Counted from the first letter of the whole stretch, positions 41,461-61,651 are shown. The stretch: 61,651 bases of DNA, filler included, from 4 parts of 4 records of this genome joined end to end with filler, not necessarily neighbours in it, one strand, 5' to 3'. The notes: generated from the sequence alone by a model not told the origin. Made by a program: numbers and translations.

Positions 41461-41661
41461 ATGTCGTACCGTAACCTATGTGCTTTGCTTGCCTCGGTAT
41501 CCTTATCGTTTCCACTTATTGCCTGTGAACCCCGGGTCAAGGTTGAAGCCCCGGATAAACCCATTGTCATTAATCTCAATGTGAAGATCGAGCATGAGGT
41601 CCGGGTCCGGGTCGAAAAGGACCTGGATCAGGCTCTGTCGAGCAATCCGGGCCTGTTCTAG
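41461..41661 (+). CDS. ynbE: YnbE family lipoprotein
   Basis: LIAC lipobox; APDKPIVINLNVKIEHEVRV. Confidence 0.93.
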   Translation: MSYRNLCALLASVSLSFPLIACEPRVKVEAPDKPIVINLNVKIEHEVRVRVEKDLDQALSSNPGLF

Positions 41662-41673
41662 GAAGATATCGAC

Positions 41674-42018: not shown

Positions 42019-42221
42019 ATGCCGATGATGCGTTCCGCGAATGGATGAAAACCGTACAGGCCAGCGATCTCGGCGAGCGCGAGGTGCTGAACCCTGCCCG
42101 GTCAGGAAAGCCGCTTGGCGAAATTATCCGCGATGCCGGTGGCGGACTTGTTTTCGATACCGAGCCGCCGCGCTATTACAAACTGCTCAGGGAACTGGCC
42201 CCTGCCTCATCGGGGAAATGA
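42015..42221 (+). CDS. Small hypothetical protein, possible amidase partner subunit
   Basis: ATGA overlap with ydbL; ends 4 nt before the amidase start; LVFDTEP motif. Confidence 0.6.
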   Translation: MNADDAFREWMKTVQASDLGEREVLNPARSGKPLGEIIRDAGGGLVFDTEPPRYYKLLRELAPASSGK

Positions 42222-42225
42222 TGTC

Positions 42226-43659
42226 GTGAGTGATCTGCCTGCCAATCCCTGCGATGCGTCTCTTGTCGAAATCGCCGCGGCCCTGAAATCAGGGCGGATA
42301 TCGTCCGCCGAAGTCACCGAAGCATCGATCGAGCGGCTGAGCACGCGGGGCGCTGCATTGAATGCCGTCGCCGGGATGGATGCGGATGACGCCCGTCGTC
42401 AGGCGAAGGAAGCCGATGCCGTTCCCGGTTCGGCTCCGTTGGCGGGTGTGCCGCTGGCGCACAAGGACATGTTTTATCGTCCGGGCCGGGTCAGCGAATG
42501 CGGATCGAAGGTGCGCGCGGGCTTCGTGCCAGACGTGCTGTCGGGGGCACTGAAAAAGCTCGATCAGGCCGGCGCCCTGGATATTGCCCGGCTCAACATG
42601 GCGGAATTCGCTTTCGGCGTCACCGGCCACAATGATTACACGGGGGCGGTTCGCAATCCCTGGAATCCGGCGCACATGACCGGCGGCTCATCGAGCGGGT
42701 CCGGTGCCATGGTGGCGGCGCGGGCGACTTTTGGCGCCCTTGGATCAGATACCGGTGGCTCGGTGCGATTGCCTGCGGCGTGCTGCGGTGTTGTCGGCAT
42801 GAAAGTGACCATGGGCCGGGTCAGCCGCTATGGCGCGATGCCGCTTTCGCATACGCTTGATACCGTCGGGCCGTTGACGCGGACCGTGACCGACAATGCG
42901 CTGATGCTGTCGGTGATCGCGGGGTATGATCCGGATGATGCGTCTTCTGCCGACATGCCGGTGCCTGATTATATAGCGGGACTGGAAGGCGGCGCGAAGG
43001 GTTTGAAGATCGGACTGCCGACAAGCCATTTCATGGACGGTATGGATGACGAAATCGCCGGACATTTCGAGGCTGCGGTTGACGTGATGAAGCAAGCCGG
43101 CGCCACATTCGTCGATGTGGATATGCCGGACGCCATTCAATACACCAATGCCCTGACCAGCCTGGTCACGGCGACAGAGGGCGCGTCCCTGCATCAACAC
43201 TGGCTGGAAACGCGGGGCGATGACTACGGTGCGCAGACCTTTGGCCGGCTTGCGGGCGGGCTGGCGACACCGGCCAGCCGCTATCTGCAGGCCCTCAATC
43301 TGCGGACGGAAATTCTCGCCCGGTTCAATGACATGGTCTTCAAACAGGTCGACATGATGATGACGCCGATGATGATCATGCATGTGCCGAGCATCGCCGA
43401 GTCGGATGTTCGTGCCGGCCCCGGGGCTGCCGAGCTGCTTTCAAGGATCGGACATTGCTCGCGGCCGGTAAATTTTCTGGGGCTGCCGGGGCTGAGCGTG
43501 CCCAGTGGATTTACCAAGGCCGGCCTGCCGTCGTCGGTGCAGTTCGTCGGGCGTCCGTTTGACGAAGCAACGCTGTATCGTGCCGGCCGTGCCTATGAAC
43601 GTGAAACGGAATGGTTTAAAACGGCACCTGATTCATCGCGTTGGGAAAGTGCCGCATGA
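42226..43659 (+). CDS. Amidase-signature family amidase (GatA/AtzE-like)
   Basis: GVPLAHKD, GGSSSGS, GSDTGGSVRLPA (Lys-cisSer-Ser triad); GTG start. Confidence 0.93.
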   Translation: MSDLPANPCDASLVEIAAALKSGRISSAEVTEASIERLSTRGAALNAVAGMDADDARRQAKEADAVPGSAPLAGVPLAHKDMFYRPGRVSECGSKVRAGFVPDVLSGALKKLDQAGALDIARLNMAEFAFGVTGHNDYTGAVRNPWNPAHMTGGSSSGSGAMVAARATFGALGSDTGGSVRLPAACCGVVGMKVTMGRVSRYGAMPLSHTLDTVGPLTRTVTDNALMLSVIAGYDPDDASSADMPVPDYIAGLEGGAKGLKIGLPTSHFMDGMDDEIAGHFEAAVDVMKQAGATFVDVDMPDAIQYTNALTSLVTATEGASLHQHWLETRGDDYGAQTFGRLAGGLATPASRYLQALNLRTEILARFNDMVFKQVDMMMTPMMIMHVPSIAESDVRAGPGAAELLSRIGHCSRPVNFLGLPGLSVPSGFTKAGLPSSVQFVGRPFDEATLYRAGRAYERETEWFKTAPDSSRWESAA

Positions 43660-44429
43660 CGAAACCGTTCGTTGAAATTGCCGGGCTGACGAAAAGCTTC
43701 GGCGCCAAGCATGTGTTGCGGGGTGTCGATCTCAGCGTGAATGAAGGTGAATCCCTGGTGCTGATCGGCACCTCGGGATCAGGCAAGACACTGCTGCTCA
43801 AATGCATCCTTGGGCTGATCCCGGTCGACAAGGGACAGGTCCTCGTCAACGCTGAGGACACGGTGCGATTTCGCGGCGCCCAGCGCGATGCCTTCATCGC
43901 CCGCACGGGGATGCTTTTTCAGCGTTCCGGCCTGTTCGACAGCCTGACGACTTGGGAAAATATCGGATTTCGCGCCCTGCAGGCGCACGATGCGGATCGT
44001 GATCAGGTAAAAAGTGCGGCCATCGACAAACTTGTCATGGTCGGTCTGGATCCGCATGTGGCCGATCTGTCGCCGTCTGAACTGTCCGGCGGTATGCAGA
44101 AGCGCGTCGGCATCGCGCGGGCCATTTTCGGTGATCCCGAACTGCTGCTTTTGGATGAGCCGACCGCCGGTCTCGATCCGATCATGTCCAATGTCATCAA
44201 TGACCTGATCCTTGATCTGGTGCGCCAGATTGGCTGTACGGCCATTTCAATCGACAGTGACATGGCCGGTGCAGAACGGCTGGGAGACAAGGTGGCCATG
44301 CTTTATGACGGCAAGATCATCTGGCACGGCGATGCCGACAAGATGATGGGCAGCGGCAACGAATACGTCGACCAGTTCGTGCACAGCCGTGCCGAAGGCC
44401 CCATCGACATGCCTGTGACAGCCCTCTGA
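43656..44429 (+). CDS. MlaF/Ttg2A-like ABC ATPase (orphan, altered H-loop)
   Basis: GTSGSGKT, GMLFQRSGLFDSL, LSGGMQKRVGIARA, DEPTAGLDPI, C-terminal EGPI. Confidence 0.85.
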   Translation: MTKPFVEIAGLTKSFGAKHVLRGVDLSVNEGESLVLIGTSGSGKTLLLKCILGLIPVDKGQVLVNAEDTVRFRGAQRDAFIARTGMLFQRSGLFDSLTTWENIGFRALQAHDADRDQVKSAAIDKLVMVGLDPHVADLSPSELSGGMQKRVGIARAIFGDPELLLLDEPTAGLDPIMSNVINDLILDLVRQIGCTAISIDSDMAGAERLGDKVAMLYDGKIIWHGDADKMMGSGNEYVDQFVHSRAEGPIDMPVTAL

Positions 44430-45427
44430 TGGCGGACATTCTGTCAGGCTTTTCCCGGGTGCCACTCGCCTTTGCACCGACCCCGCTTGAACATCTGCCC
44501 AATTTCAGCGCATCCCTCAACGGTTCGGACATCTGGATCAAGCGCGATGATTGCACGGGCTTTGCGCTCGGTGGCAACAAGGTGCGGAAGCTCGAGTTTT
44601 TGATGGCCGAAGCCCTCGCGCAGAAAGCCACCGTGATCGTCACTGCCGGTGGCACACAATCCAACCACGTCCGCCAGACCGCCGCTGCGGCGAGTTGCCT
44701 CGGCATGGCATGCCATTGTGTGCTTGAACGTGTCCGCACCGACGATCTGTATGAGCAGAACGGCAATGCCCTGCTTGACCGGCTGTTCGGTGCCGTCCCG
44801 CGTTACATCGACAAGGACGCTGATATGGACGCGGCGATGGCGGAGCTTGCGGCGGAACTCACGGCGGCTGGTGAAACCGTCTATGTCGTTCCGGTCGGCG
44901 GGTCCAATGCGCTCGGCGCGCTCGGCTATGTGGCCTGTGCCTTCGAGCTTTCGGCGCAGTTCCGTGAACAGGGTGTGCATCCTGGCCTGATCGTGCTTGC
45001 CAGCGGCAGCGCCGGCACCCAGGCCGGGCTGCTCGTCGGTCTTGCGCTGGCCGGTCTTGAGATCCCCGTGCTCGGCATGTGTGTCAGCCGCCCCGGTCCC
45101 GCACAGCAGGATAAGGTCAAAGCGCTGGTGGCGGATGTCTGTAGCCTGCTCGGGCGGCCCGATCTGGCGGATGTGATAGAAGTGATCTGCGACGGCGCCT
45201 ATGTCGGCCCCGGCTACGGCGTGGAGACGCCGGAGATGGGGGCCGCGGTCCGTCAACTGGCCAGAACGGAGGGCATCTTTCTGGATCCGGTCTATACCGG
45301 CAAGGCGATGGCCGGGCTGATCGATTATGCTGCGACGGGGAAGCTCGCCGGTGCCGGGTCTGCGGTGTTTCTTCACACCGGCGGCACACCGGCGTTGTTC
45401 GTCTATCCCGATGTCGCCGAAGGCTGA
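44429..45427 (+). CDS. PLP enzyme, D-cysteine desulfhydrase / cysteate sulfo-lyase family
   Basis: KRDDCTG, GGNKVRKLEFL, QSNH, LDPVYTGKA, HTGG. Confidence 0.88.
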   Translation: MADILSGFSRVPLAFAPTPLEHLPNFSASLNGSDIWIKRDDCTGFALGGNKVRKLEFLMAEALAQKATVIVTAGGTQSNHVRQTAAAASCLGMACHCVLERVRTDDLYEQNGNALLDRLFGAVPRYIDKDADMDAAMAELAAELTAAGETVYVVPVGGSNALGALGYVACAFELSAQFREQGVHPGLIVLASGSAGTQAGLLVGLALAGLEIPVLGMCVSRPGPAQQDKVKALVADVCSLLGRPDLADVIEVICDGAYVGPGYGVETPEMGAAVRQLARTEGIFLDPVYTGKAMAGLIDYAATGKLAGAGSAVFLHTGGTPALFVYPDVAEG

Positions 45428-45440
45428 GACCCTGAAGCAA

Positions 45441-45461
45441 GCCCCGGAAATAATCCGGGGC
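45441..45461. terminator. Hairpin between convergent genes
   Basis: GCCCCGGA-aataa-TCCGGGGC; followed by TTGCTT on the minus strand. Confidence 0.6.
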
Positions 45462-45494
45462 AAGTTCAGAGTAGCTTATTGCAAATAGCGGGAA

Positions 45495-45539
45495 TTACTT
45501 CACCGACGAAAACGCGGTCGGCTTCAGGATGTGGTTGGA
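45495..45539 (-). CDS. 3' fragment of an unidentified gene cut by the contig end
   Basis: Reads SNHILKPTAFSSVK-stop with GC-rich third positions, pointing at the hairpin. Confidence 0.4.
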   Translation of the reverse strand, partial: SNHILKPTAFSSVK

Positions 45540-45639
45540 NNNNNNNNNNNNNNNNNNNNNNNNNNNNNNNNNNNNNNNNNNNNTTAATTAATTAANNNNN
45601 NNNNNNNNNNNNNNNNNNNNNNNNNNNNNNNNNNNNNNN
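45540..45639. other. Artificial contig-joining spacer
   Basis: 44 N + TTAATTAATTAA + 44 N. Confidence 0.98.
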
Positions 45640-45781
45640 CTCACTCACACACTCACTCACACACTCACGCTGCCGCTCAGCTCAAAACGTCACTCCATCC
45701 ACTCCGGTCAAACGACTTGCTTTGCTGCGGTCACTCGCTCACTCGCTCGCTTTCCCTCGCTCTCACGCAACTCGCTCGCTT
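45640..45781. repeat. Degenerate (CTCA)n/(CTCG)n microsatellite region
   Basis: ctcactcacacactcactcac and ctcgctcactcgctcgct; similar tract at about 46138-46175. Confidence 0.7.
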
Positions 45782-46556
45782 GCCCTGGGAAGTTGAACTT
45801 GCACCGAAGGAAGGGAAATGGACGCGGCCACGAGAACTTTCGCGGAATGGTTGGAAGGAGCAACCTGGCCGCCCAGAAGGAAAGTGGATCGATGTTGCTG
45901 TTGACAAGCAGGCTCGCTCGCCTTCGCTCACAAGCTGCTCAACTAATCCTCAAGAACGCACGCACGCGCTCCAGCCTGGGGGGCGGTTGTGTGTTGGCTG
46001 TGCTCAGACGCAAAGCAGCACGTTGCGTGGCGATGAAGGAGATTCATGTCGCTGCTTCTGGTTGGCTTGCACAGGGCACTCAACGCTTGGCCACGGCTCA
46101 AACGTGCAACAAGCATACATTGACCACCACCGCCACCCTCACTTACTCACTCACTCACTCATTCAACTCACACACCCGCTCGCCCATTCGCCCAGCTCCA
46201 GCACGTGGTCACGACTGGCTGAAGACTCTGGAACGGTGCGAGAAGTGATCCATCCAAAGCTTGTCCGCTGCTTCTGCTTAGAGAGAGAAGACAATATACC
46301 TGCAACACGCAGAAGAAGTTCTTTGGAAAAAAGGCGTGCAGACCAGCGCCGCGACGGACAGACCGACCGAGTGTCGGTCGTCCTTTGGTTCTCATTGTGA
46401 AGGAACCCACGCCAAAAGATGCAGACTTGAACAACAATATGAACCAACTGGCCAACTAGCCGGCCAGTGCTGGCAGCAGCTAGGTGCGGACAACTCAACT
46501 CGCCGGTCGGCTGGGTCGGGTCGTGCCGTCGGTAAAGCCCACGGCACGACCACAGA

Positions 46557-48479
46557 ATGAAATCAGATTTCCTTCGACTTTATGAGACGAATGTCGCAAC
46601 AAAGCTCATTGCCCCTGAGCTGCGCATGTTGCAGCTCATTGCGTTGAGTGTGATCATGGTGTACTGGGTCGTCCGGCTTTTGACGCTCCACGAACTGTTT
46701 GTCATCGAAGCAGCGTCTGGTAGCTACACGGTGTGGTTGACGGAGCCCGAGGAGTTTGTCTCGTCACAGTGCGAGGAACTTGCTGAAAGCTCTGTCGTTC
46801 CGGCACTCGGGGCATGCCTCTACCCTGACTTGCTGTCCGACGAGGACTTGGAGACCTGCACAGCCATGGCTCTTCTTGGAGCCCCTTTCATTGGCGCAGC
46901 CGAGGACTGTCAGGAATTTGATCCTTTATTGCACGCAAAGGTTAGCCACGAGGAGATTTTTGTTACCACAAATTTGGGTGTTTCGCAGTTCGAGTGCGAT
47001 GCCTCCAACGCCGCGACTTGCAGTCGAACCGCTTCAAATCCTAACTATCCCGCACTGCGGTCTCCAGCGCTCGATCCGAACGCGACGTGGACGCTGGTCG
47101 CTGGTACTGGAGCTGCACGCGTGAACTTGTTTTACTCGTTTGCGAGCGTGTCCTTGAATGCCGGGTACATGCGCGGTGTGGAACCACGGTTTGAAACTGT
47201 GGACGGCGAGTTCATCGAGTTCCGGGATTTTGTACAGCCGGATGCCGTTGACCATTTTGAGACGTATGGTGTTGTGTCGCTCACTCTGGATGAGTTGCGT
47301 TTCCTTGCCAATGTTAGCATGGATGATGTTCTATTCAACACAACGGTCGGAGAAGTCCCGCACCGTCAAATGGGCGCCAACCTTCGCATTGACGTGCATG
47401 CCACCAACATGCTGCTGTGGAATGTGGGGGAGAACAAGCAGGTCACGATTCGGGTGTCCCGTCACGATCGCCAGTCAGGGTTTTTGCATCCAGAAGTGCG
47501 TTGGGATGATGCAGCCATGCGTTCAGGAGAGCTCATCATGAACTATGGGACGCGTATTCAAGCGGCTGTTGGCGGCGACTTTTACGTCTTCGATCCTGGC
47601 TTCCGGGTGCTAGTCATTGTCATGGCCACGGACGTCATGATCCAACTGGCTACTGTCATCGTGGACATCATTGCCATGGCGCTGTGCACGGCACAATTCA
47701 AGAAACGTTTCTTGAGGCTGAAGTACTATAAGGCCCCTTCGTATAGCGAGCTCACTGCAACTCCACGAGCAGGTGGGCGGTCGCCGCAAAATCTGAAGAG
47801 AATTCTCGTGACCCCGCGGTCTGTTGGTGGTGCTGACCGCGACGATGACGATGACTGTCTCGGTGCCCTTAGTCGACGACGCGCTGAGAGCAAAGAAGAA
47901 CCGTCAGATGGAGCTATCGCCATTGCATTGTCGGCTTCTGGGGCGGCAGCTGCAAGTGCCACCAAAGTTGCTGTGTTGGAACGTCGCCTCCTTGGAATGC
48001 AAAGCGCTATGAAGACTGCATTTGAGCGCTTGGAAGCTCGCATGATCATCCATGCAGGAGGAATCGGTCCCACTGAATCCGCCAGCCTTGCATCTGCATC
48101 GGGGCGAACATCTCGTCGACAGGCCAACAGACCCTCTGCAGGGCATCGTGAAAGGCTTCGCCCTGAGCCACTTGACTGGTCGCAGGCAATAGACAGCAAG
48201 ACAGATCCAGATTCTCGTGCCGAGGACGGGTCCGTAGCAAATCAAGATGAATCGGCATCGACCCCACGGCAGGAACAGCACTCCGTGAAACAGCGCCCGC
48301 CGGGCCTCCCCAGTCCTGCTAGCAGTTCAAGCGGCATCAGCGGCAGTGGTGGAGGTGGTGCTGAAGTTGCTCCGGTAGACTCGCGTGGTCATCGACGCAT
48401 TCAACGCCTGCGGCAACACCCGGTCAAACCCAAAGCTCAACTCCGCTCGCCACGCGAAAGTAGCCGCGCAATATTGTGA
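46557..48479 (+). CDS. Divergent P2X receptor-like two-TM cation channel (eukaryotic, no introns needed)
   Basis: N-terminal YET, TM1 (LQLIALSVIMVYWV), ectodomain LDELRFLANVSMDD...RQMGANLRIDVHATN, YGTRI..V.G..F, TM2 LATVIVDII, FLRLKY; long disordered tail. Confidence 0.75.
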   Translation: MKSDFLRLYETNVATKLIAPELRMLQLIALSVIMVYWVVRLLTLHELFVIEAASGSYTVWLTEPEEFVSSQCEELAESSVVPALGACLYPDLLSDEDLETCTAMALLGAPFIGAAEDCQEFDPLLHAKVSHEEIFVTTNLGVSQFECDASNAATCSRTASNPNYPALRSPALDPNATWTLVAGTGAARVNLFYSFASVSLNAGYMRGVEPRFETVDGEFIEFRDFVQPDAVDHFETYGVVSLTLDELRFLANVSMDDVLFNTTVGEVPHRQMGANLRIDVHATNMLLWNVGENKQVTIRVSRHDRQSGFLHPEVRWDDAAMRSGELIMNYGTRIQAAVGGDFYVFDPGFRVLVIVMATDVMIQLATVIVDIIAMALCTAQFKKRFLRLKYYKAPSYSELTATPRAGGRSPQNLKRILVTPRSVGGADRDDDDDCLGALSRRRAESKEEPSDGAIAIALSASGAAAASATKVAVLERRLLGMQSAMKTAFERLEARMIIHAGGIGPTESASLASASGRTSRRQANRPSAGHRERLRPEPLDWSQAIDSKTDPDSRAEDGSVANQDESASTPRQEQHSVKQRPPGLPSPASSSSGISGSGGGGAEVAPVDSRGHRRIQRLRQHPVKPKAQLRSPRESSRAIL

Positions 48480-48967
48480 ACCCTCTGCCAAGCTCCTGGT
48501 CTCGGTACAATGAGTCGTTCGACTTGTAGACCTTGATAGTATCCCAAACTGGATATTTGTCCATGATTTTTATTAATTAGCAACCTCCATCTCACCTCTT
48601 GAACGCCCCATTCCCCTCTGCCAACCCGCGAGTTTTCAAAACGTGAAAAGAAGATTGTGACAATAAATCACAACACGCCACCTCGAAGTGACGCAGTGCC
48701 GGGCTTGGTCTCTCTATCGCGCGCGTGTTTCAAACGTATGGCGTCAGTTCCTTGAAGGCCCCCAACGAACTGCGCGCGCTTCGTGAGCGAGAGACACGAC
48801 GCGCTGCTGTCGGCGACGATCTGCAGCTAGAATATTGGGTGGGTTCCCCATGCTGTCGAAAAAAGAATGAGCTCAGCGTTTTCTCCATGCCGTCGCGGGA
48901 AAATAAGCAAGCGCATGGGTTATCAAATGCGTATACGTTTGGTCACAAATTACTCAACTACCAAAAA

Positions 48968-50893
48968 TCAAAGACAGAGGCGCTTCCGCCGACTGCCTCC
49001 GACAGGTTTGAGCTTCTTTTTCTTCGCTGCACCTTTACCACCCTCTCGAGCGGCTGCAGCAGCCTCGAACGGATTTGTTGCGCTGTCTGCAGCTTCATTA
49101 GCGTCCCCATCCACTGGCAGTACCCCAGTCAAGTACATGTTTTTGGCGGCACTTTTCTTTCCGCTGCCCGCCGCGTCGTCGCCTTCTGCGTTAGCTGCTT
49201 TCGAAGGGTCGTCAAAAAAATCCTCCCCTGTAGGGCATTGCGCCAGCCCGCACCGGCTGGTCAGGTCCCACTTCAATCACTATTCCAAGCGCAAGCAAAA
49301 GTTCACATCGCAATGCATTGAAGAAATAGATATAAGAAATAGATATACCTGCGGCAGCAGCAAGACGCTGCGCCTGCAGAGCAAGAATGGTCTCTTTTTC
49401 TTCTTTCTCTATCCGTCGACGCTCCGCTTTTTCAGCCTGAATCGAAACCCAACACAGCGTTCATCGACGCCCGGCGCAGTACGAAATAGACGAAAAAGGC
49501 TTGATGCACGAGGCCCAAACGAGTGCTGACCTCTTTTTTCGCAGCAATAGCCTCCGCAGCTTTTCTTTTTATTTCCTTCTCTTTCCACACTCGCCGCATT
49601 GTCTTGTTTGGAGGGAAACAGCAGCGGGTGTTGTGATGTTCTCATAAACGCTCAAACGTTGAATGACCAGAGTGAACACCGCGAGTTTAGACAAGCGTGA
49701 ATGACGCACCAGTACTTCTTCATGGCTCAGAATCGTCGACTTGGTGCTGGCATGAATGATGTGATGCAAAAGGTGAGCGGGAATAAACCCATCCAGATTC
49801 CCAGGGCTCAGCACCAACTTTAGCCACCATCAAAACAATCCAACAACACACCAACAACAGCAAAACACCAGTAAACTTCCACTACACATTTCGCTGGGAA
49901 GCACCATTCAGCACAAGAAGCTTTGGCACGCTGTCTTCGAACCTCATTGTCTTCCTTTGTGTCGCCTGTACTCTCAAAGAAACGAATTCCATGCGCAGCA
50001 GCCTCCCGCACATCGACAAAGACCAAAACATTCGGGCCCTTCGTGTGGCCGGGAAGGCACTTCCTGCGCTCTGGCGGCTGTCGAAAGAAGTGGATGTAGG
50101 CTTTGTCCATGCGCGAAAGCCCAACATCGCGGATTTTGTTTATGTGTTGGAAGTGAGTGGCATGCACCACCGTGCCTCCATTTGAATCTATCAGCTCAAG
50201 GTCCGCTTCATTTAACTCTCGCACCGGCAAACATTCATCGACCTTGGGCACATGTGTATGTCGGGAACGGAGGAACAACTCCCCATCTGCGCCACGCTCC
50301 ACCTCCAGGCGCTGCTGTGGATCCAGCCGGGCTGCATTCAAATACTTGATAGGTTCATAGTGGTAGTTTTTGAGCGCCCCACTGTGCAATTCCAAGAGTT
50401 TCGAGAGCGGAACAAAGTCGTCCGGCCGTGCGATGCTGCGCGTCTCCCGCTTCCCGAGCACGAAAAGGTATGCGCGAATTCCTGCTTCGTCAATGCCCAC
50501 AAGCTCCGCTTCGGACAGAAAATGGATTTCAGAGAGGAACCACGAGTCCGGTGACTTGCCAAAAGAGATAACGTCGCGCTTTTTCACGTTCACGGTCACA
50601 TCCGGCGGGAGTTTCTTCCTGTTCAAGTACACCCCGAAAGAAGACTTGTTGTCCCGGATTGTAACGCAGCGCTTGTCCTGGCGCACCGTCACGACCGCGT
50701 GGCGTCGCGATGCAGTCTCATGGGTCAGCACCCACGAGCACAAGTCTGTGTCCCTCCCTACAAGGTGCTTCTTTGCGTTGCCGTTGCCACGCAGCACCAC
50801 TGAAGTTTCCTCAGCCTGCTGCGCGCCACCAGCGCCCTCCTGAACAGACGCGACGACAGACTCTCGCTTGGTGAACTTCACAAAGTCAGACAT
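48968..50893 (-). CDS. Spliced gene: FHA domain + Tpt1/KptA (RNA 2'-phosphotransferase)-like domain + charged tail
   Basis: Hand-spliced exons 50893-49943, 49817-49716, 49602-49531, 49436-49349, 49227-48968, all GT-AG and phase-consistent. FHA: VGR, SRRHA, D..S..G..LN. Tpt1-like: QQRL, VHAT, GLSRM, IHF, GIRF, LVLSPGN.DGFIP. May be 5'-truncated. Confidence 0.8.
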
Positions 50894-50920
50894 TCTCCTA
50901 ATGAACAGCCTAGAAGTATC

Positions 50921-51020
50921 NNNNNNNNNNNNNNNNNNNNNNNNNNNNNNNNNNNNNNNNNNNNTTAATTAATTAANNNNNNNNNNNNNNNNNNNNNNNN
51001 NNNNNNNNNNNNNNNNNNNN
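50921..51020. other. Artificial contig-joining spacer
   Basis: 44 N + TTAATTAATTAA + 44 N. Confidence 0.98.
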
Positions 51021-51024
51021 GAGA

Positions 51025-51049
51025 CTCTCTCTCTCTCTCGAGACTCTCT
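51025..51049. repeat. (CT)n microsatellite at the contig start
   Basis: ctctctctctctctc-gaga-ctctctc. Confidence 0.7.
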
Positions 51050-51414
51050 CAGCTTTTCGTTATTTGCACTTTGCCCTTGCTTCTTTGTTCGTTTTTTTTG
51101 TTTTCTTCCTTTCTTTTCTGTTTTCCTTCTTGTCGCCTTGGTTCTCGCTCCTTGGTTCTTGTGCTGCTGGGTTCTCGCTCCTCGTCTGCTGCTGACAAAC
51201 GAACGACTTCGTTTCGTGCGCGTGGCTCCCCGCACTCACTGTCACTTGCCGCAAGAGGACGCGAGACAGAGAGAACCAAAAAGAGAGCAGAGAGTTGGTT
51301 CGCGAGGTCGCTCAGAGTGTTGGTGCTCCTCCGTTCAATCGAAAGTGAACTACTCAGCGCAAAACAGCAGCAGCAGCAGTACCGCCACCAGTACCAGTAC
51401 CACCACCCAGCAAC

Positions 51415-54400
51415 ATGTCGGACGAGAAGCCCAAGAAGAAGACCATGAAGGTCAAGACTACGAAAGCGACCAAGAAGAGCGACGACGGGAGCTCGCCGAA
51501 GAAGTCGCCGAAGAAGAAGAGCACGAAGACCCCTAAGGCGCGTGGTGTGAAGCTGCGCCCTGCGCCGCTCGTGATGCTTCTTCTGCATTCAAGAATTACC
51601 AACGTCATTTACGGCGCGCTGTATTGCTTGCCACTCCCCCTGCATTTTCACGCTCTTGTGCATTTCATCATCCATTGACCGTCACTTTGTGGGCTGCTGC
51701 CTGTGTTGGTCCCAACTTGCTTGCTTGCGTGGTTGCTTGCTGGCAGACGACGAAAGATGGAGAGACGCCGAAGCTGAAGAAAAAGGTGCGCAAGTCGGAC
51801 CCGGACGCTGCCACGCCACGCACGGGCAGCAAGAAGAAGACGACCTCCAAAGCCAAGTCCACGACTGCAAAGTCGACCAAGGCCAAGTCCACCAAGTCCG
51901 CCGGCGATTCGAAAAAGTCTGCGAGCAAGACTAAAAAGAAAACCAAAGAGTCGTCCAAGGATGGTGCAGCGTCTCCCAAGAAGACGAAAAAGAAGAAGAA
52001 GGATGCGGCGGAGGCTGCCCCGGTCCCTGAAATCCCCAAGGTCGACCCTGCCGTCCAGCGCAAAGCGATCGAGACAGAGATCAAGCGGATTCGGGAGGAC
52101 CTGGCCAAGCAAAAGCGGCTCACGGCCCGCGGTGAGCAGGAGCTTGAAAGTCTGAAGCGCAACTTTTGCATCAAAAAGGCCATGCAGTCGCACATCAACG
52201 ACGCCACTCTGCGCGAGCATGACGAACTCATTGAGGACATGATTGACACCCTTTACGAGTCCGTGAACTTTGCAATCTGCCGCTTTGAAGCCGTGCACTC
52301 CACCCTCTGATGTCGAGCGACTGACATCCGTTGTGCGGCGAACCGCTTTTGTCGGCTTTTGGTTGCGTAGGTACGAGGAGCACATCGAGCAGTTTGAGGT
52401 GCTCGCTGAGTCTTTCGCTGAGAATTTTGAGGATGCCAAGGCTGACTTGGGTTTCGACTTGGAGGCGCAAGGCAAACTTTATGCAGAGCAGGCGCAAATG
52501 CTGCAGGAGTTCGCTGACGACATCACTGAGAGCAAGGAGAAGTAAGTGTTTCTGTGGAATGGTTGCATTTCCTTCTAGCTTTGCACGTGCCTCTCCGCCG
52601 TACCCGACGTCGTGACCGTTCGAGTGTTGAGGTGGCTTGCTGCATTGCTGACCACGCCGTGCCGCGCGCGTTTTGGCCGTCGCCTGTCTCAGATACACGG
52701 AAGAAATTGAAGAAGCACGCAAGCTTCAGAAAAAGCTTGTACGTGAAAACGAGGGTCTCCAAGCGCTTTTGTCGGACGTGCAGTCGTCCCTTGATGGTGG
52801 TGAGGGACTCAACCAACGCCTGTTCGATGAAAACCGCCAACTTGAGAAGGAGGTTTGTGTGACCTACGCATGATTGTGCCACTGGAGTCCCTTGAGGTCG
52901 ATTTTTGTTGGCACTCACCGAACCTGGCCTGTTTGTGGTTTTTGTGGTGCGCAGATCACCGAGCTCCAGGCTCTGTTGGAGCAAGCTGCGGCAACTTTGA
53001 AAAACAAATCACCTGCCAAGACCAAGAAGGAGGCTGCTCAAGCAAAAGTGAGCCGTGCCTCCTTCGCTATGTCCGCCATGGTCTTGCCTCCGTGTTGCAA
53101 GTACCGATCGAGATAACCATGCTCATCACTGTTTCCCCTGCGTTCAATGCGCACTCAGGCAATTCAAACCCTCCAATCAGACAACACTCGATTGATGAAC
53201 GACATCTCGAAGCTGAAGGAGAAAATGGTGGAGGCTGTTGCGAAGCAAGAAGAGGCACAGGCTGCTTACGAAGCGGCTGGCGGCGGTTCGAAAGAGGACG
53301 AGGTCAGCTGTCAGATCTACGCGCGACCTTGATTTCTTCGTTGTAAGTCCGAGTCATTGTGCCCCACAAATGTACCGGATTTTTTCATGTTTCTGGTGTG
53401 GCAGGAGGAGATGCACCGCATGAAGCAGATGAAGAACGAGGTGAAGGAGCTGCAGAAGATGATGAAGGATGTCGACAAAAAGCTCGCAAAGGCAAAGATC
53501 CCCAAACGCAAATCCGAAGTTGCCGAGATGAAGGAATTGGAAGCACGCGGCAAGAAGCTGACGGTTCGATACCTTCAAGCTTCTCGAGGCTTACCTACCT
53601 GTATTCTGCGCTGTTACCAGTTTTTTTTGTGGCTGTCCATCAATCACACCAACCGCGTCTTTCGTTGCCAGGCTGAGCTGAAGAAGGCACGCGCAGAGAA
53701 GAAAACGCTCGCAGTCCCGCAAAAACTGCCTGATCCATCAGAACAGGCAGAGCCCGACCCCGCAAAGATTGCCGAGCTTGAGCGCGAGGCAGCCGAGTTG
53801 GAAAGTGCCGTTGCAGCTGCAAAGGCTGAGGCTGAGGAAATGGCGTCAGCTGCTGAAGCTGAGACAACACCCGGCGACGGGTGCGTCAACACTTCTTTTT
53901 TTGAACGGGACCCATGTGTGCTGTGTTGCAAGTGCTAAACTGCCGTTTCCTGAACCCACCCTCAACCGGTCTGGCGTGTGTGTGAACGGCAGGCCTACCA
54001 TGCAAGATCTGCGCAACTTGGCAGAAGAGATTCAGGCCGGAGATGCGGAGGTTGAGGAAAAGAAGAAGCAAATCAAGCGCATTGAAAAAGAGATGGTTCG
54101 TTTTGCATGTGCCTCCGCGCCCCAGCTCTGGGTCCTTCCACGATGACTACTGGAGGGTGATGGTGGAGAGTAAATCGGGCCGATTCCCTTTGCTCAATTT
54201 GCCGTTTCCGCCATTGGATGCTGTTTGCGCAGGCCGAGTCGAAGGCCGAAGGTGGAAGCATCGACGACAAGCTCAAGAAAATCAGAAAAGCCATCAAAGC
54301 AGTTCAAAAGGACCTGGCTGGCGTGGAAAAAGAGGCCCAAAAGCAAGAGGCGCGCAACCAAGACAAACTCAAAAAGGCCCGCAAAAAGTACGGCGGGGTT

Positions 54401-56436
54401 GGCAAGGTAAATATCGCATGGCAACTGCTCTGCGTTGGCTTTTGTTGATGACCAAACGTCTCGAGAAACGCTGACACGATGTGTTGTTGCGCTCGCCAGA
54501 CTGCCAAGCGCGTTTCGGATGCTTTCAAAAAGCTTTCTCAGTCAACACGTGCGCTGGCTGGCGATGTTCGCGAGATTTTCGAGAACAACCTTCCCTTCAT
54601 CACCAAGAAGATGGAGCGGCTTGTGCACTTGGTCAATACCAGTGGTGAAGACAGCAACAAAGCCATCGCAAAGTACAACAAAGAGTTCATGCTTCGCAAG
54701 GTGCGTGCTTTCGTCACGTCTTGGCTCGGTGCCATAGCTCTGTGGGCGGATCTACGCGCTTTGTTTCACCGTCGAGTTCAGTTCATTGTCGACAAGCCGC
54801 CCGTTGGTGCCCACAACCCCACAAGCTTTGCGTTGACCTGATTTATTGATTGTGCAGGGCTTCCACAACAAGCTTCAGGAGCTTCGTGGCAACATTCGAG
54901 TCTTTGCGCGATGCCGTCCCATTTTGCCTTTCGAGAAAAAGCGCGGCGCCACTGTGTACGTGAGCTCAGTTTCCATCGATGTTCGCTGCTTCTGACTGTA
55001 ATGTTCTTGTCAAGGCTCATTATGTCTGGGCCGTGCACGACCTGAATGCAGTTGCGTGGAGTTCCCGATGCCGGACACCCTCCAGGTTCGCGACGAGAAG
55101 CGCAACACTACCAATACGTGGGAGTTCGACAAGGTATTCAAGCCCGGCTCTGAGAACATGGATGTATTCAAAGAGATCTCCCCACTTGTCACGTCGATCT
55201 TGGATGGCTACAACGTCTGCATTTTCGCGTACGTCGGCCTTGTGCGCACTTGTGCGCATGCTGGAGTGGTTCTGCGCGCAGCCAATTTGGCACAACTCAC
55301 ATGGCATTGTCTGATCGATTTTTCTGTCACAAACTTCCAGGTACGGGCAGACTGGAGCTGGCAAGACCTATACCATGGAGGGTAAAGGAGAAGACAAAGG
55401 TTTGAATTGGCGCACTCTTGACACCCTCTTCGCACTTAAGGAAAAGCGCGCAAAGCAGGTACGCACGCCTCGACAATTACACATGTGACTGGACTGTAAC
55501 TCAAGTCTTTCGCCTCATCTGACGCCTTTGTGCACTGGACTTCTGCGCCAGTTCAAAATTGACATTCTCATGTCGTTCCTTGAGATTTACAACGAAGAGA
55601 TCAAGGACTTACTCAATGCAAAGAAGAAGGGTGGCGCCAAGCTGAAAGTAAAGATGCTGAAGGGAGGCGGCAACGAAATCCCTGGTCTGGTGCAGAAGCC
55701 GGTCAACACCGTGGCCGATCTGGATGCATACGTCGAGGAAGGCAAGAAACGCAGAACCTGCAAAAAGACTAAGATGAACGATTCATCCTCGCGCTCCCAC
55801 GCCGTGCTCTCTATTTATTGCACGTGCCTCAACAAGGTCGGCAGCACAGCTGATTTGTAGCGTACTTTTGTTCAAGATGGAGTCGTTCGTGATGCTCACA
55901 TGCCTTTACGCTGGTACATTGGGTCTTATGCGGCACAGATGTCCAAGAAAGTAATGAATGGAAAGCTTCACTTGATCGACCTTGCTGGTTCCGAGCGCCT
56001 GGACAAGAGTGGTGCGACTGGCCAAGCTCTCAAGGAGGTGCGTTGGCCCTGTCTTTCCGAATTTCGTTTGCCGTTGTTCAATTGTGTCGGCCCCGCAAGG
56101 TGCCATTGTGCGCGGGGTTCCGATTGCACTCATAGATTCCACTTCGTGGCGGTGCGTGGGCAGGCCATTCATATCAACAAGTCGCTGTCTGCCTTGGGCG
56201 ACGTCATTGCTGCTCGAGCCAACAAGTCCGGCCATTGCCCGTACCGAAACAGTGCCCTAACGCACGTGCTGGAGGACTCTCTCGCTGGCGATTCGAAAAC
56301 GTTGATGCTTTCGCAAATTTCCCCGGCTACCGACAATGCACAAGAAAGTGCATGCACTTTGCGCTTCGCTTCACGTGTGCGCAAGGTGGAGCTTGGCCGT
56401 GCCTCAGCTCATGGTGAGGGCGGAGGGGAGAAGTGA
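51415..56436 (+). CDS. Kinesin-14 (C-terminal motor, KIFC/Ncd/Kar3-like), 17 exons
   Basis: Exons 51415-51537 (or 51546), 51747-52258, 52371-52541, 52693-52852, 52955-53047, 53159-53302, 53405-53563, 53672-53880, 53993-54095, 54233-54406, 54500-54700, 54858-54955, 55052-55228, 55341-55458, 55552-55836, 55939-56037, 56164-56436. Lys-rich tail, coiled coil, neck [42 protein letters not shown]. Confidence 0.93.
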
Positions 56437-56621
56437 TGTACGCTTACCCGATGATGCCGAGCCCTCGCGTTGTGGCTCTTCGCCATAAACTGGGTGGCGA
56501 GATGAGTAGTAGAGCCATGGCATTTTAATTTTAACTACTTGAACGAAAAAAATGAAATCCTTGTTTTCTTTCTGTACCCAGTGCGGTGAAAAGCGCGGCG
56601 AAAAGCGTTTTTGCCGCCGTA

Positions 56622-59600
56622 TCAGAGAGGCTCCGTGGCCCAGAAGTGGTTTTCGTGCAGAAGCATGCGCAACATCGGCAGGGGAGTATCCGTGCGGTGG
56701 CCGGGATGTGCGACTGACACCTCTTGCGGAGAATAGACGTCAGTCCATACGCCACCATCTGAGATCGAAGTCAGTTCAATGCGCACATGGAATAAATCTG
56801 CTGCAGCTGCGACTTCTTGAGCGCCCGCCCAGCTCCCAGGCTGTCGCATGTTGCTGAGGTATTCAGCGAACTCTTGACGGGGTGTGCCTGCAGTGCAGCG
56901 GTCACACAAACGCAAGTCAAGACATCCATTACACGTGACCTTGGGCGATAAATGAGAACTACAAAGAGTGTTGAAAAACTTGCCCAGCCCAAATATACTG
57001 TGAAACCTTTCCATGTGCGCGACAACGTCCTGGCGTGCCTGCATCGCAGCCCGAGGTCGCATGCCCGCCGCATTTCGAACAGTCTGCGTAAAAAAAAACA
57101 AAAAAAACAAACAGCATTGCGGAAACCGTGTCCAACATACGTCAATGACCGATGAGCAGGCATCGGCAAGACCCGCACGGCGCGTAAGCTCGTTCAAACA
57201 CGGTAGCGGGAACATGCCTGCGTCGAGAAGTCGTATGGTGCACCTTTTTCCACGGTCTCACGGCCGCTGGAAACTGCAGGGGGTGTTGATACCTTGTGCT
57301 GAACCAACTGATCTGCAAGTGCAAGAAAAAAACAATTTCCATCTGGGGCGATGGGCCTGCATGCGAATTTGTGCACATGTGAACAACTATGTATCACAGA
57401 AGACGAAAACTCGGGACCCATGGAGGCTTGACGAAAATTTCATTCCGAAAAGTTGACGCTTACGAACCTCGGTCGCAGCCCAAGTTGGGCAAGTTGTGCC
57501 CGAACTGACGCAAAGTGGCATTCGATCCCACTGCAACAAGACGCGTTGTGTGGTACTTCTGCCGCTGGTTTCACAAGATCTTCCCTCGCACCAGGAACTG
57601 AGTCCAACGCCACAACTAAGTGCATTGGTGTCTTGAAATCAAAAGCGAGACCACTTTCAAAAGTCGCCAAGAAAACCGACTCGAGGTTCTTCGCAAACGC
57701 AGAAGTATCCCAGTATGATGTGCCGTCTGTCGAACGGTCCCCACTGAATGTCTCTCGTCCAGGAGGCTGTGTATTTGTGCTCAGTGTGAGAGTTGCGTCC
57801 ACATCTTCCCACTCATCGTCATCCCAATCGTCTTCTTCAAAAGTACCCTCCTGCTGATTGGCTGGACCACCTACACTCGGGGCGGTCGCGTCGATTTTCT
57901 CTTGGTCGGAACCCACATCCGACCCCACATTGAGTGTGTTTGCTTTTGCGAACAGCCAGCGGTCACAGGAAGCCGCAATCATTGCCTAGCAGTACACAGC
58001 AGGTTGTAAAGGAGCTGCAGCCGCGACCACACACAAGGCTCGAAATTCAGGAAGAGATCTTCCTCAAAAAACAACAAAAAACAAAAACAAAAAAACACGC
58101 ACTGCGACGCTGCTGCGCCGTGAAACAATCGTTCCAAACTGAACGGCAATATCTTCATAATCTTTCCAGCTTACAGAAACACCAACAGCTGCCCAATTTG
58201 GCCTGCCAAGTCCAGAAGTAATGCCGCTTAAAATCGACCTTGCTACCCGTCCTCCCATGTGCTGATTGTGCAAGAACGTGACAAGGGGAACCTGTATATC
58301 GCACAAACACTTCGGCAAGTTACGAATCGGCAAGCATTTTCTACGATTGGCAAACGATTTACACTAAAGCGCAAGCCTCGCAGTGTTGCACAATACAAGT
58401 TGTCCTTACCCCACCCCAGAAGGCGTCCACAGCCCCAGTGTGGGCGTTGTAGGTTGGGGTGTCTAACACCACATCGCAGGAACAACTATAGCGACGTTGA
58501 TGGTCGAAAGGAGAGGCCACAAATGGGAGAAACACCAATCTATGCGGGGCAATGCCGCGCGCTGCGGCAAAAGCAACCGCATTTGGAATTGAGTCTCCAG
58601 GATTCTTTAATCATACCGATAGAACGAATTCAAAAATCATGCCAAAATTATTTGCGGAGAAGCCCCGCATGGCATGTCGTGTATTGGCTTCGTCGTTTCG
58701 AGCAGGTCTGTTAGTACGTACCATCAACAGCAGCAACCGACTGTTTGGCACTCGTGACAATATATTGAGCCACACATGAAACGTGGTGGGTGAGATCTTT
58801 AGATGCTTGTTGAAGCAACAGAAGTGGACCGCTTGATTGGACCGTGCATACATAGCACCCGAACAAACAGCCTGCCACGCATTCACACACGTCAAGTCAT
58901 AACAAGCGGGGTTGTCAACTGATGTGACGAGTTCAGTGACGTGTACAAAGACCACTCCGCGTGGCCAAGCAAGTCCAGAACCTACTTTAGACGGAGGCTC
59001 CATCAGGGCAGCGTGACTATTCACAAAAAAAGATGATGGCAACTACAAAGTGCAAACGTTGAACAACGTGTGTAAGGCATCACCACCCACAAAATGCTTT
59101 GCTACTGAGCAGGCACATGAGGCAGCCCGTACCAAGGCCAATTTTTCGCTGTGCCCCGAGCGTAACTCGGCTGGAGTAACAACTCGATCAGAAATAATGT
59201 GCGAAATCCAAGGCGCGCCCGTGGTGCCCACATAAACTAGGTATGCCATCTGCAAAAGGGGGAAATCGCAAGACGGATGCAGGTGCCCGATCCCAACAAG
59301 CAGTAAAGCGAAGACATCAAAGATATAGCTCTCGCGCAACCAAACAGCGATTGCTGGCCACCAATAGCAGACACACCTGAATTGGCGCTACACGTAAACT
59401 AAACAGCCCATCCAATCGCACTCCCTCATTGCTATAGCCATCCATGTCAACCGCAACATGCAGTTTCAATGTAGTGCGAAGATAGCTCGCCACTTCATGA
59501 ACATCTTTCCTGGAATTTTCAGCAACGCGACAGAATTTGCATCAAGTGTTGTGGGTTACTCCCAACACACCGAAAGGCGGCAATGTATGTCGAGTATACC

Positions 59601-61605
59601 GCGGGCACGACGCACCCGCTGACATCTACAAAGTGTTCACAGCCGTGGCGAATCCTGCGTCTCCACTCAAAATCACCCAAGGTGCTTCCACGCGGTGAAG
59701 GTGCATCACGCTTGAGCTGGAGCTTGTCGTCGGCCGAATCAGGCGTCGTAGCAATGCAAAACAACTCAATGCGGTTTCTGTCATGGTGCGTATATCTGCA
59801 AGAAAGCGTGTGGGTGAAAAAATTAGCTCCAAGTTCCTGTGAATTTGGTTGATAGTTCACAGGTCACTTGCAGGCCATGAACATCACTTACAAGTCATAA
59901 ACAAGATAAGCTGTCGCTTTCAGCCGAAAGTCGGCGCTTACAAGCCCGACTCGAATACGCTCCGATTTTTTGTGGCCGGGAGGGCCAGACTTTTGGCGCC
60001 CACGTAGCAGTGACGATTGAACCGGTGGAGGCAATGCATCTGCAGAGTTGCCCAAAACCTTGGAACGAGATTTCAGTGCCGCCGCTTTCGCAATTTGAAG
60101 TTTGAGTCTGGCGCACCACACATTTTTTGCACGAACATGGAGCATGGAAAATTCAAGCAAGTCATGCCTTATCAGCCATGTTCCTTGCGTCAGGTACGCA
60201 CCCTGGATCCATGTCATAGTGTAATGTCATGTGCGGCTGCACAATGCTTGTTTCCCGGACCGACGGACACTGGAGCGCGCTTTCGAGGGCGTGTGTGATA
60301 CGGTAAAGCTTGTCCCACTCCATAATCGTTGTCTTGAGGTATCTGAACGACGAACACCAACACGATGCGATAAAGCGAGTGTTTTTTCGCAACCCCAATG
60401 AAACTCGACGAGCTGATCGCCTAACGATCCATCCCACAACGTTGTGCAGGGAAGAGCAACCCCGCGAGATTACAAACGTACACGTGAGTGGAAAGGCATT
60501 GGACTAAAGCCACATTCTCCGCAATAAAAGAGCAATTTTCGAACAGTGACAAGTCTGCGACATTGTTGAACACACACTCTCCTTCGGAGCCAACAGTTAC
60601 GGACAACAGCAGCACCAACACGAACAGGACGGCAATGGAAGGTGAATTATGCGCCAGATGGGTTGGCGAGCCGAGCGGCAAAAGAATTTCCGAATCAAAC
60701 GTTTTCAACGGACCAAAACTTTCCGACGCGTTGCTCCATTGCTTGACGTTGAAGAAAATTGCTCCTAGCGCGGCGAGACACTCAATACAGGTGCCGTTCG
60801 ATACTTGCACGGAGTGTTGGAGCGTGCGAATACGAAGCATCAAACGCAATTGCTCTTGCTCTTCCGCATCTTCAGTGCCGCCACCGGTGCTCCACATCGG
60901 GTCGACTGCTTCAATTTGCTCCAGCAGCAGGTAGGCGTGGGGCTCGTTCGGGTTCAATTCAATTGCTAATCCAACATGCCGCCTGGCAGACATGAACTGC
61001 CCCTGTCGAACGTACGCAGCCGCAACAGCCAGGTGAGCTTGCTCCGGGATACCCTGCAGTTCATAGCAGCGGACAAACAGCGCGAAGCAGGCGCCAGGGT
61101 CTGGATGGCTCCCATGAGTCATGGCCTTCCAAAACAGTACGGACGCTGCAGCCAGATCGCCCGCTGTCATAAGCCCCTTTGCTTCCTCAAACAGCAGCAG
61201 CGCCTCCTCCTGCCGCGTCGGCGACGGCAGCTCGCTCACTTCTGCGGCGGCCACTGCCACTGCCACTGCCACTGCCTCAGCCTCAGCCTCAGCCTCCACT
61301 TCCGAGTCTGCTGCTCGAGGCTGTTGCAGCCCAGCGACCACGCCCAGTGAGGCTGAAATTGGAGCAGCGAATGCCAAGCTGCTGCAGCAGCCGCCACCGA
61401 GGGGCAACTTGAACGCGCGCACGAGCAGCACAGGACCCAGAGCGACGAAGCAGCCCACGAGAAAGAGCGTGGCAGCTCCTAGGTTCCTCCTCCTCCTGCT
61501 GCTACCAGTGGTGGTGGTGGTTCTTCTGCTTCTTCGCGCACCTCTGCGCGCCCTGAACCCAGTCGGTGCCATGGCTGAGATTTGGGGGACTGTTGACGCT
61601 GTCAT
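56622..61605 (-). CDS. Spliced gene: hydrophobic N-terminal anchor + TPRs + GT41 O-GlcNAc-transferase-like domain + C-terminal OTU deubiquitinase domain
   Basis: Exons 61605-60714, 60581-60482, 60342-60202, 60107-59892, 59795-59616, 59509-59377, 59249-59133, 59042-58722, 58604-58410, 58291-58103, 57985-57468, 57356-57293, 57083-56622; all GT-AG and phase-consistent, extra in-frame introns possible. GT41: RIRVGLVSADF, VDMDGYS, APIQMAYLVYVGTTG, FNKHLKI, LDTPTYNAHT, VPLVT, GRVARS, WDTSAFAKNLE. OTU: PDGNCFF, WAGAQEVAAAA, NHF. Confidence 0.78.
61250..61297. repeat. Coding hexamer repeats (GCCACT)n then (GCCTCA)n, encoding an EA/VA linker
   Basis: Tandem units seen directly; translate to EAEAEAEAVAVAVAVA on the minus strand. 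Confidence 0.8.
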
Positions 61606-61626
61606 TCAGAATCGCAGCACATGCCG

Positions 61627-61651
61627 AAAAAAAAAAAAAAAAAAAAAAAAA
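61627..61651. repeat. Poly(A) run at the window end
   Basis: 25 consecutive A. Confidence 0.85.

Follow-up and report, generated by a model that had tools for sequence, protein, structure and literature searches.

A spliced eukaryotic gene joining a GT41 glycosyltransferase to an OTU cysteine-protease domain

The stretch of DNA analyzed here (hereafter the window; 61,651 bases) carries, on the minus strand of its last contig, a gene (56622-61605) of a microbial eukaryote in which a glycosyltransferase domain of the GT41 family (Glyco_transf_41) is followed by a cysteine-protease domain of the OTU type. This gene yields one spliced message, in which a single frame stays open for 1130 codons. 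Its product comprises, in order, an N-terminal leader with a hydrophobic segment, about three putative TPR-like hairpins, the GT41 domain with an acidic insertion near its end, a linker, and the predicted OTU domain; we regard it as likely that this architecture is as described and at least functional. Each half belongs to a known family, and the combination is new. An earlier interpretation made without database searches (the sequence-only reading) had proposed one spliced minus-strand gene with the GT41 part first and the OTU part second, and a transcript-derived contig, the continuous frame, and alignments to homologs of both domains all bear this out.

One spliced message with a single 1130-codon frame

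To build the gene model, the minus strand was divided into stop-to-stop frames, and 12 frame pieces were scanned against Pfam, three of which returned no match. The window was also compared with three sequencing runs: X1 (DNA, possibly the origin of the assembly), X2 (same organism label, from a different study than the DNA run), and X3 (DNA, different organism label). Run X2 contains 55% of the sampled window words, and a single X2 contig of 3164 nucleotides (nt) covers 56600-61354 on the minus strand while omitting 14 introns. Because a contig that leaves out 14 introns present in the DNA must derive from spliced RNA, we took X2 to be a transcriptome. The resulting 15-exon model is identical to this contig letter for letter, with the exon lengths from 61354 down to 56600 summing to exactly 3164. 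Twelve of the joints were listed by the comparison tool, each in one X2 contig and in none of the X1 or X3 contigs. The two others lie in repeat-masked stretches and were deduced from the coordinates of the X2 contig, in which letters 2776/2777 correspond to a step from 57218 to 57083 and letters 2119/2120 to a step from 58103 to 57985.

All features of this gene lie on the minus strand. In the model taken from the X2 contig, the coding region (56622-61605; 1130 codons plus the stop codon at 56624-56622) is spread over exons 1-5 (61605-60714, 60581-60482, 60342-60202, 60107-59892, and 59795-59616), exons 6-10 (59509-59377, 59249-59133, 59042-58986, 58871-58722, and 58604-58410), and exons 11-15 (58291-58103, 57985-57468, 57356-57218, 57083-56984, and 56887-56600). 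The spliced frame remains open from the ATG at 61605 to the stop codon. Two candidate start codons lie within 61570-61605 of the stop-to-stop frame: the ATG at 61605-61603 has an in-frame TGA immediately upstream, and the ATG at 61572-61570 (Met12) has the better context, gccATGg.

The sequence-only reading had counted 13 exons; the true number is 15, since its first exon contains two introns, intron 1 (60582-60713) and intron 2 (60343-60481). Intron 1, of 132 nt, keeps the frame and contains no stop; it is spliced out in the X2 contig, and its retention would add 44 residues, including a hydrophobic stretch. With splice sites chosen within the stated joint ambiguity, 12 introns are GT-AG and two are GC-AG, so the expectation that all introns would follow the GT-AG rule holds for 12 of the 14 and fails for intron 13 (57084-57217; 134 nt) and intron 14 (56888-56983; 96 nt), both inside the OTU part. 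The two junctions on which the sequence-only reading had relied most, 58103/57985 and 57468/57356, are both used in the X2 contig, the former as a deduced and the latter as a listed joint. We consider the overall result to be beyond chance, because the junctions come from an RNA-derived contig rather than from a search for open frames and yet restore one frame over 14 junctions, and because the restored frame is also colinear with intron-less homologs of both domains.

The physical join between the two halves can be followed within a single exon. Homology to OTU proteins starts at residue 947, in exon 12 and upstream of intron 12; in this 518-nt exon, the terminal motif of GT41 is followed in the same frame, without an intervening stop, by the earliest conserved helix of the OTU (residues 947-962) and by the loop that runs up to the DGNC motif. 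Since the OTU match begins within the exon that also ends GT41, the GT41-OTU join is independent of any splice. A linker of ~40 residues separates the two domains. As the sequence-only reading had stated, exon 57985-57468 carries the GT41 C-terminal motif and runs open to its splice donor, the next exon starts with the DGNC cysteine motif, and the last exon carries the WAG... and NHF motifs. Intron 12 (57357-57467; 111 nt, GT-AG) lies between exon 12 and the Cys exon, and its joint (57355/57467, cut +1) was found in one X2 contig against none of the contigs of DNA runs X1 and X3. Were intron 12 retained, a stop would follow after eight more codons, giving a GT41-only protein; no such form was seen in the contigs, which are blind to isoforms.

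Three short X3 contigs, 98-100% identical to GT41 exons 10-11 and adjoining introns (58106-58766), were also recovered; such an identity indicates that this organism, or one very close to it, occurs in another sample at low depth.

Domain organization and active sites

Of the 12 frame pieces, six matched the GT41 profile PF13844 in colinear order, between positions 96 and 525 of its 543. Three of these exceeded the 25-bit cut-off unaided (29.2, 40.3, and 34.8 bits), and the three others fell below it. In the spliced protein, the catalytic domain, complete with both lobes, spans residues ~335-905 (57641-60332, exons 3-12). Residues 281-787 aligned in a single stretch to L021, an intron-less GT41 open reading frame (ORF) in an Acetobacteraceae genome bin (28% identity over 530 columns, E-value 1.5e-40), and two further bacterial loci of the same set (L020-L022) aligned similarly, with identities of 28-33% over 324-530 columns. 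Since L021 is intron-less and the alignment runs in one stretch, ten splice junctions are thereby independently validated. In searches of single exons against the PDB, exon 10 matched XcOGT of Xanthomonas campestris best (37.3 bits, E-value 3.3e-8), followed by human OGT (1.1e-5), and exon 9 matched human OGT best (36.3 bits, 3.5e-8), followed by SPINDLY (SPY; 25.1 bits, 1.4e-4); exon 4 gave no PDB match at E-values up to 10. The two lobes have no intervening domain between them: nothing matched Pfam profile positions 226-355, and the exon with the end motif of the first lobe is followed in the spliced protein by only a short stretch before the second lobe starts.

The residues expected to hold the nucleotide are largely in place. 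In the alignment of exon 9 to human OGT, Lys637 (58797-58799) falls on the nucleotide-phosphate-binding Lys (K842), the counterpart of K665 in SPY. In the alignment of exon 10 to XcOGT and human OGT, the donor-site loop reads Y714-N-A-H717-T718-G719 (58434-58451), and His697, His717, Thr718, and Asp722 match nucleotide-binding positions of both enzymes, all of them retained. Within the phosphate-binding loop, the His and the first Thr are kept and the second Thr is replaced by Gly719.

Tyr714 aligns with Y463 of XcOGT at the donor-gating position. A structural study of SPINDLY (PMC9715652) equates human C917 with SPY Y744, XcOGT Y463, and TtOGT Y419 at this position, and argues that a bulky residue here would clash with N-acetylglucosamine (GlcNAc) and so disfavor the donor uridine diphosphate-GlcNAc (UDP-GlcNAc). 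According to the same study, the in vitro O-GlcNAc activity of XcOGT and TtOGT is slight or absent, and K665 and T748 of SPY hold the nucleotide. Because Tyr714 occupies the gating position, UDP-GlcNAc is doubtful as the donor of the present enzyme. Judged by these alignments, the GT41 domain is of the bacterial, XcOGT type. The sequence-only reading had described it as O-GlcNAc-transferase-like; its assignment to GT41 stands, and the narrower label proved too specific in view of Tyr714 and the missing intervening domain. The marks of a strict O-GlcNAc transferase (OGT/SEC), namely a small gating residue and the metazoan intervening domain, are both absent, and we therefore classify the protein as a GT41 enzyme without filing it among the O-GlcNAc transferases.

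Toward its end, the GT41 domain carries an acidic insertion of ~80 residues (~800-880; 57716-57958) within its last helical part, delimited by composition and by a MAFFT alignment with the L020-L022 ORFs, in which the bacterial relatives lack it. It separates the preceding helix from the GT41 C-terminal motif (YWDTSAF...; residues 881-902, 57650-57715), which matches the terminal motif of the bacterial GT41 protein in L022.

The OTU domain occupies residues 947-1130 (56625-57517), encoded by the last 16 codons of exon 12 and by exons 13, 14, and 15. Pfam gave it limited recognition piece by piece, the last exon alone reaching 21.1 bits against a cut-off of 23.3 for OTU (PF02338) and the Cys-bearing piece yielding a weak otubain match. 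In the assembled domain, residues 947-1127 aligned to P0003, a stand-alone relative described below, with 40% identity over 183 columns (E-value 7e-45 in a one-sequence blastp search), the DGNC Cys and the C-terminal His being aligned. All seven full-length relatives (P0003, P0005, and five ORFs from metagenome loci), which are 30-40% identical to the domain, pass the Pfam OTU cut-off. The catalytic Cys971 of D968-G-N-C971 (57332-57343, exon 13), whose codon adjoins a run of seven T, and the catalytic His1123 of H1123-F-W1125 (56640-56648) align with the same residues in P0003, P0005, and the locus ORFs, in agreement with the sequence-only reading that both residues are present.

OTU proteases usually have Asp or Asn two residues after the His, as the third member of the triad. 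Here the position is taken by Trp1125, from which the sequence-only reading had surmised a weakened deubiquitinase. The relatives do not sustain this: the H, W, and T of an H-[FY]-W-[AS]-T motif are invariant in seven of seven aligned subfamily members, so Trp1125 is no sign of decay, and we read it from these alignments as a subfamily signature rather than a lesion. Another residue may take the third triad role, or the OTU domain may work as a Cys-His dyad. A structural model of a locus ORF from a 40%-identical relative (12 aligned rows) has a core with a predicted local distance difference test score (pLDDT) of 83-96; against the PDB, its top match was OTUD3 (4BOU; E-value 2.8e-8, template-modeling score 0.77 on the target), followed by OTUD5, OTUD1, and Otu2. 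The C-terminal end of the protein is thus a predicted OTUD-like OTU cysteine protease, with its fold seen on the model of the relative. A PDB search with the last OTU exon alone returned OTUD1 at a non-significant E-value of 0.69 and was set aside. In the P0003 alignment, an insertion of 30-40 residues lies between the Cys helix and the central helices.

The N-terminal leader (residues 1-66; 61408-61605), which had escaped the sequence-only reading and bears on where the protein acts, falls into two parts. Arg, Ser, and Thr abound in residues 1-41, which include no acidic residue, and residues 42-66 form the sole strongly hydrophobic segment of the protein (Kyte-Doolittle maximum 2.43 at residues 44-62). 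A single-sequence fold of exon 1 modeled residues 35-65 as one long helix, at low confidence. These features suggest a membrane anchor or an organelle-targeting (import) leader. A bipartite plastid signal was considered, given an SLAFAAP motif after the hydrophobic segment, and rejected: the 30-40 Arg-rich residues that precede the segment misfit a signal peptide.

Between the leader and GT41, residues ~129-234 (60904-61221) comprise six helices of 13-16 residues, placed by the exon 1 fold at 129-143, 148-163, 170-184, 187-200, 204-217, and 222-234 (pLDDT 58-87 per block, with a mean of 55.7 for the fold as a whole). The Pfam profiles TPR_2, TPR_14, TPR_19, and TPR_1 match residues 189-231, all under their cut-offs (E-values 0.003-0.01). 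The six short helices look like about three TPR-like hairpins, a resemblance drawn from weak profile matches and a weak fold; the TPR part named by the sequence-only reading is thus retained as a short region with sub-threshold scores. Also in exon 1, hexamer microsatellites at 61239-61308 encode an (EA)n(VA)n run and were masked as a repeat in the read comparison.

Relatives, origin, and known counterparts

To recover relatives of the OTU half, we searched 1.84 billion representative proteins with the last exon using HMMER, which returned 12 proteins at E-values of 0.001 or below. The best match, P0001, corresponds to the present locus, predicted without splicing as a frame of 197 residues that runs through two introns. 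The protein P0002 is the same type of unspliced frame from a relative at 80% identity, in which an intron occupies the same place as intron 14 here. Its exon parts are identical at 22 of 27 and 71 of 87 positions, and its read-through intron at 9 of 32; with the exons conserved and the intron diverged, the coding parts are under constraint (purifying selection). Only the OTU exons of this relative are visible, and the fusion has so far been seen in one lineage. In contrast to these frames, P0003 (309 residues) and P0005 (327 residues) are stand-alone proteins.

A scan of metagenomes added five loci (L001-L005), all matching only residues 918/947-1127, each through an unbroken ORF of 288-317 codons. 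When exon 12, P0003 residues 40-225, and GT41 exon 10 were used to look for longer, fused relatives, the word-indexed searches came back blank, which is weak evidence. The ESM Atlas gave no usable match to exon 12 and only generic OTU clusters for P0003. A scan of viral contigs produced 14 loci that were rejected as relatives, each match covering only 16 residues (query 8-23, E-values 2e-4 to 3e-4).

The five metagenome loci lie on marine contigs that are AT-rich (31-43% GC), intron-less, and gene-dense. A DUF5871 gene lies upstream of the OTU gene in all three loci with enough upstream sequence, and a DUF2828 gene lies downstream in three of the five. A relative of the DUF5871-like ORF, 23% identical, is carried by a viral contig of 617,453 bp in IMG/VR (L023, 4001-4609). 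These contexts suggest that the stand-alone OTU members are giant-virus genes and that the OTU module has moved between giant viruses and protists.

Comparison with characterized GT41 enzymes places the transferase half closest to bacterial proteins. XcOGT (PDB 2JLB and 2VSN) and the bacterial L020-L022 proteins share with it a short N-terminus, putatively TPR-like in the present protein, followed directly by the two-lobed GT41 domain, without an intervening domain; XcOGT shares the gating Tyr as well. In contrast, the bacterial proteins lack the Arg-rich leader, the hydrophobic segment, the 80-residue acidic insertion, and the OTU domain, and the gene described here has 14 spliceosomal introns. 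Human OGT and plant SEC belong to the same family and share its Lys (K842 in human OGT) and its His-Thr loop, whereas the protein here is without their long TPR superhelix and intervening domain and has Tyr in place of Cys917. Human OGT is known to work with BAP1, a deubiquitinase that is a protein of its own; in the product described here, a deubiquitinase-type domain is covalently attached, and it belongs to the OTU rather than the UCH enzymes. SPINDLY, the O-fucosyltransferase of plants and protists (PDB 7Y4I and 8DTF), has the gating Tyr (Y744) in common, and its K665 and T748, which hold the nucleotide according to PMC9715652, correspond to K637 and T718 here. It was, however, a weaker match than human OGT or XcOGT (25.1 bits with exon 9 and none at E-values up to 1 with exon 10), and its 11-TPR array is absent here.

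For the protease half, OTUD3, OTUD5/DUBA, OTUD1, and yeast Otu2 share the OTU fold (predicted here through the model of the relative), the DGNC Cys, and a His near the C-terminus. OTUD-type enzymes differ in having Asp or Asn where Trp stands here, and the insertion after the Cys helix further sets the present protein apart. The closest counterparts are the stand-alone OTUs (P0003 and the L001-L005 ORFs), which are ~40% identical throughout the domain, the helix that precedes the Cys loop included, and have the same H-F-W-[AS]-T end; these are separate genes on AT-rich, intron-less contigs without GT41, whereas the OTU domain here is fused. A literature search, itself weak, found no description of a GT41-OTU fusion, in line with the sequence-only reading that the architecture had not been described.

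Proposed function, rival explanations, and genomic setting

Ubiquitin removal and the sugar modification of nuclear and cytosolic proteins influence each other in animals, but through separate proteins. In the scheme we propose, the enzyme would reach its substrates by means of the TPR-like part and the membrane anchor. Its GT41 domain would draw on a nucleotide sugar to attach one sugar to Ser/Thr; in view of Tyr714, the donor is probably not UDP-GlcNAc and may be a smaller or different one, as has been proposed for SPY, XcOGT, and TtOGT. The OTU domain, through Cys971 and His1123, would strip the same protein, or the enzyme, of ubiquitin or a ubiquitin-like modifier, so that glycosylation and rescue from a ubiquitin-dependent fate would be coupled in cis. 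That both domains are active on the same clients in such a fully coupled, bifunctional mechanism is possible, at somewhat less than an even expectation. The most specific version must be held as tentative: a membrane-anchored bifunctional enzyme that would put a non-GlcNAc sugar on its clients and take a ubiquitin or ubiquitin-like tag off them, its OTU domain belonging to an unnamed H-[FY]-W-[AS]-T subfamily exchanged between giant viruses and protists and welded onto a bacterial-type GT41.

Several observations weigh against a single gene encoding an active, two-domain enzyme. Short-read contigs establish single junctions rather than one molecule running from exon 1 to exon 15, and transcript ends and isoforms are invisible in them; moreover, the RNA label of X2 was only guessed by the tool, its RNA nature following from the 14 removed introns. 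The X1 DNA contigs are each one letter short relative to the window, one gap lying at 56950 (intron 14) and the other at 57326, in the T7 run of the Cys exon, and the latter gap, if true, would break the frame; the X2 contig and the homologs side with the window at the T7 run, and both gaps are probably homopolymer errors. In the GT41 domain, the exon 10 alignment places Pro694 and Gly719 where human OGT has Lys and Thr (K898 and T922). Lys441 stands where the bacterial relatives carry His in the L021 alignment, as other GT41 proteins generally do. According to PMC9715652, this His (human H498) is Leu in SPY and is not the catalytic base. In the OTU domain, Trp at the second position after the His departs from the canonical active site. 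No fused relative was recovered: all five metagenome OTU relatives stand alone, with no GT41 (at E-values up to 0.01) in the 0.4-3.3 kb upstream. Finally, given the positive charge N-terminal to the hydrophobic segment, a type II signal anchor has to be considered, and if the segment is one, both domains would face a lumen free of ubiquitin.

These points feed three rival explanations. The locus could hold two neighboring genes, one for GT41 and one for OTU, joined only by read-through transcription or by contig assembly. Such an arrangement would draw on the inability of contigs to prove single molecules, on an ATG in intron 12 (~57421) that is in frame with the Cys exon, and on the stand-alone nature of every other member of the OTU subfamily found. 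It is nevertheless highly improbable: the splice 57468/57356 is present in an RNA-derived contig, and helix 947-962 is encoded before intron 12, in the same exon and frame as the GT41 end, so that an OTU protein initiated at the intronic ATG would be without it; the distance from the stop of the unspliced frame to that ATG is, besides, only 20 nt.

If the fusion is accepted as real, one of its domains could still be a pseudoenzyme, with the OTU serving as a ubiquitin-binding module for the transferase, or the GT41 as a TPR/GT-B scaffold for the deubiquitinase. The Trp in place of the usual Asp/Asn, the substitutions at Pro694, Gly719, and Lys441 relative to human OGT or the bacterial relatives, and the slight or absent in vitro O-GlcNAc activity given in PMC9715652 for XcOGT and TtOGT, the closest solved types, speak for this possibility. 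We consider it unlikely, because Cys971, His1123, and the DGNC motif are retained, the Trp is no loss peculiar to this protein, being invariant in the subfamily, Lys637, His717, Thr718, and Asp722 are all kept, and the OTU exons are 80% conserved in a relative in which the intron between them has diverged. A further alternative has the OTU domain acting only in cis, either cutting the linker to free GT41 or deubiquitinating its own enzyme for stability, and leaving the clients of the transferase alone. The position of the OTU at the C-terminal end, behind the ~40-residue linker and the ~80-residue acidic insertion, would suit such a role, as would the viral OTU-fold proteases, including processing proteases, among its structural neighbors and the giant-virus-like contigs that carry its nearest relatives. 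However, the linker shows no ubiquitin-like or Gly-Gly cleavage motif by eye, and cellular deubiquitinases (OTUD3, OTUD5, and OTUD1) rank first among the structural matches; we hold this alternative to be distinctly improbable.

On our preferred reading of a functional GT41-OTU fusion, a natural covalent joining of this kind constitutes "Rosetta-stone" evidence for shared clients, in a lineage far from animals and plants. Both halves also lend themselves to expression and mutation, which makes the gene a compact system for asking which sugar a Tyr-gated GT41 of the XcOGT type uses, whether an OTU with Trp two residues after its His is active, and whether glycosylation shields the same substrate from ubiquitin-dependent turnover. 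Should only one half be active, the gene would still show one modification system recruiting the reader module of another.

The genomic setting of the gene must be read with the make-up of the window in mind. The window consists of four contigs glued by artificial spacers at 29307-29406, 45540-45639, and 50921-51020, each made of 44 N, TTAATTAATTAA, and 44 N. The contigs at 1-29306 and 29407-45539 are bacterial-looking, with long intron-less frames (a YdbH-like protein, an amidase, an ABC ATPase, and a pyridoxal-phosphate-dependent enzyme), and those at 45640-50920 and 51021-61651 are eukaryotic. As the assembly contains both eukaryotic and bacterial contigs, neighborhood across any spacer is meaningless. 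The GT41-OTU gene lies on the contig at 51021-61651. On this same contig, a gene encoding a kinesin with a C-terminal motor (55002-56522, plus strand) is convergent with it, their 3' ends lying ~77 nt apart (the kinesin X2 contig stops at 56522 and the fusion X2 contig at 56600). The other eukaryotic contig has, at 49820-50920 (minus strand), a single open frame that extends to the contig end next to the spacer and encodes both an FHA domain (54.5 bits) and a Tpt1/KptA RNA 2'-phosphotransferase domain (53.9 bits), an unusual pairing.

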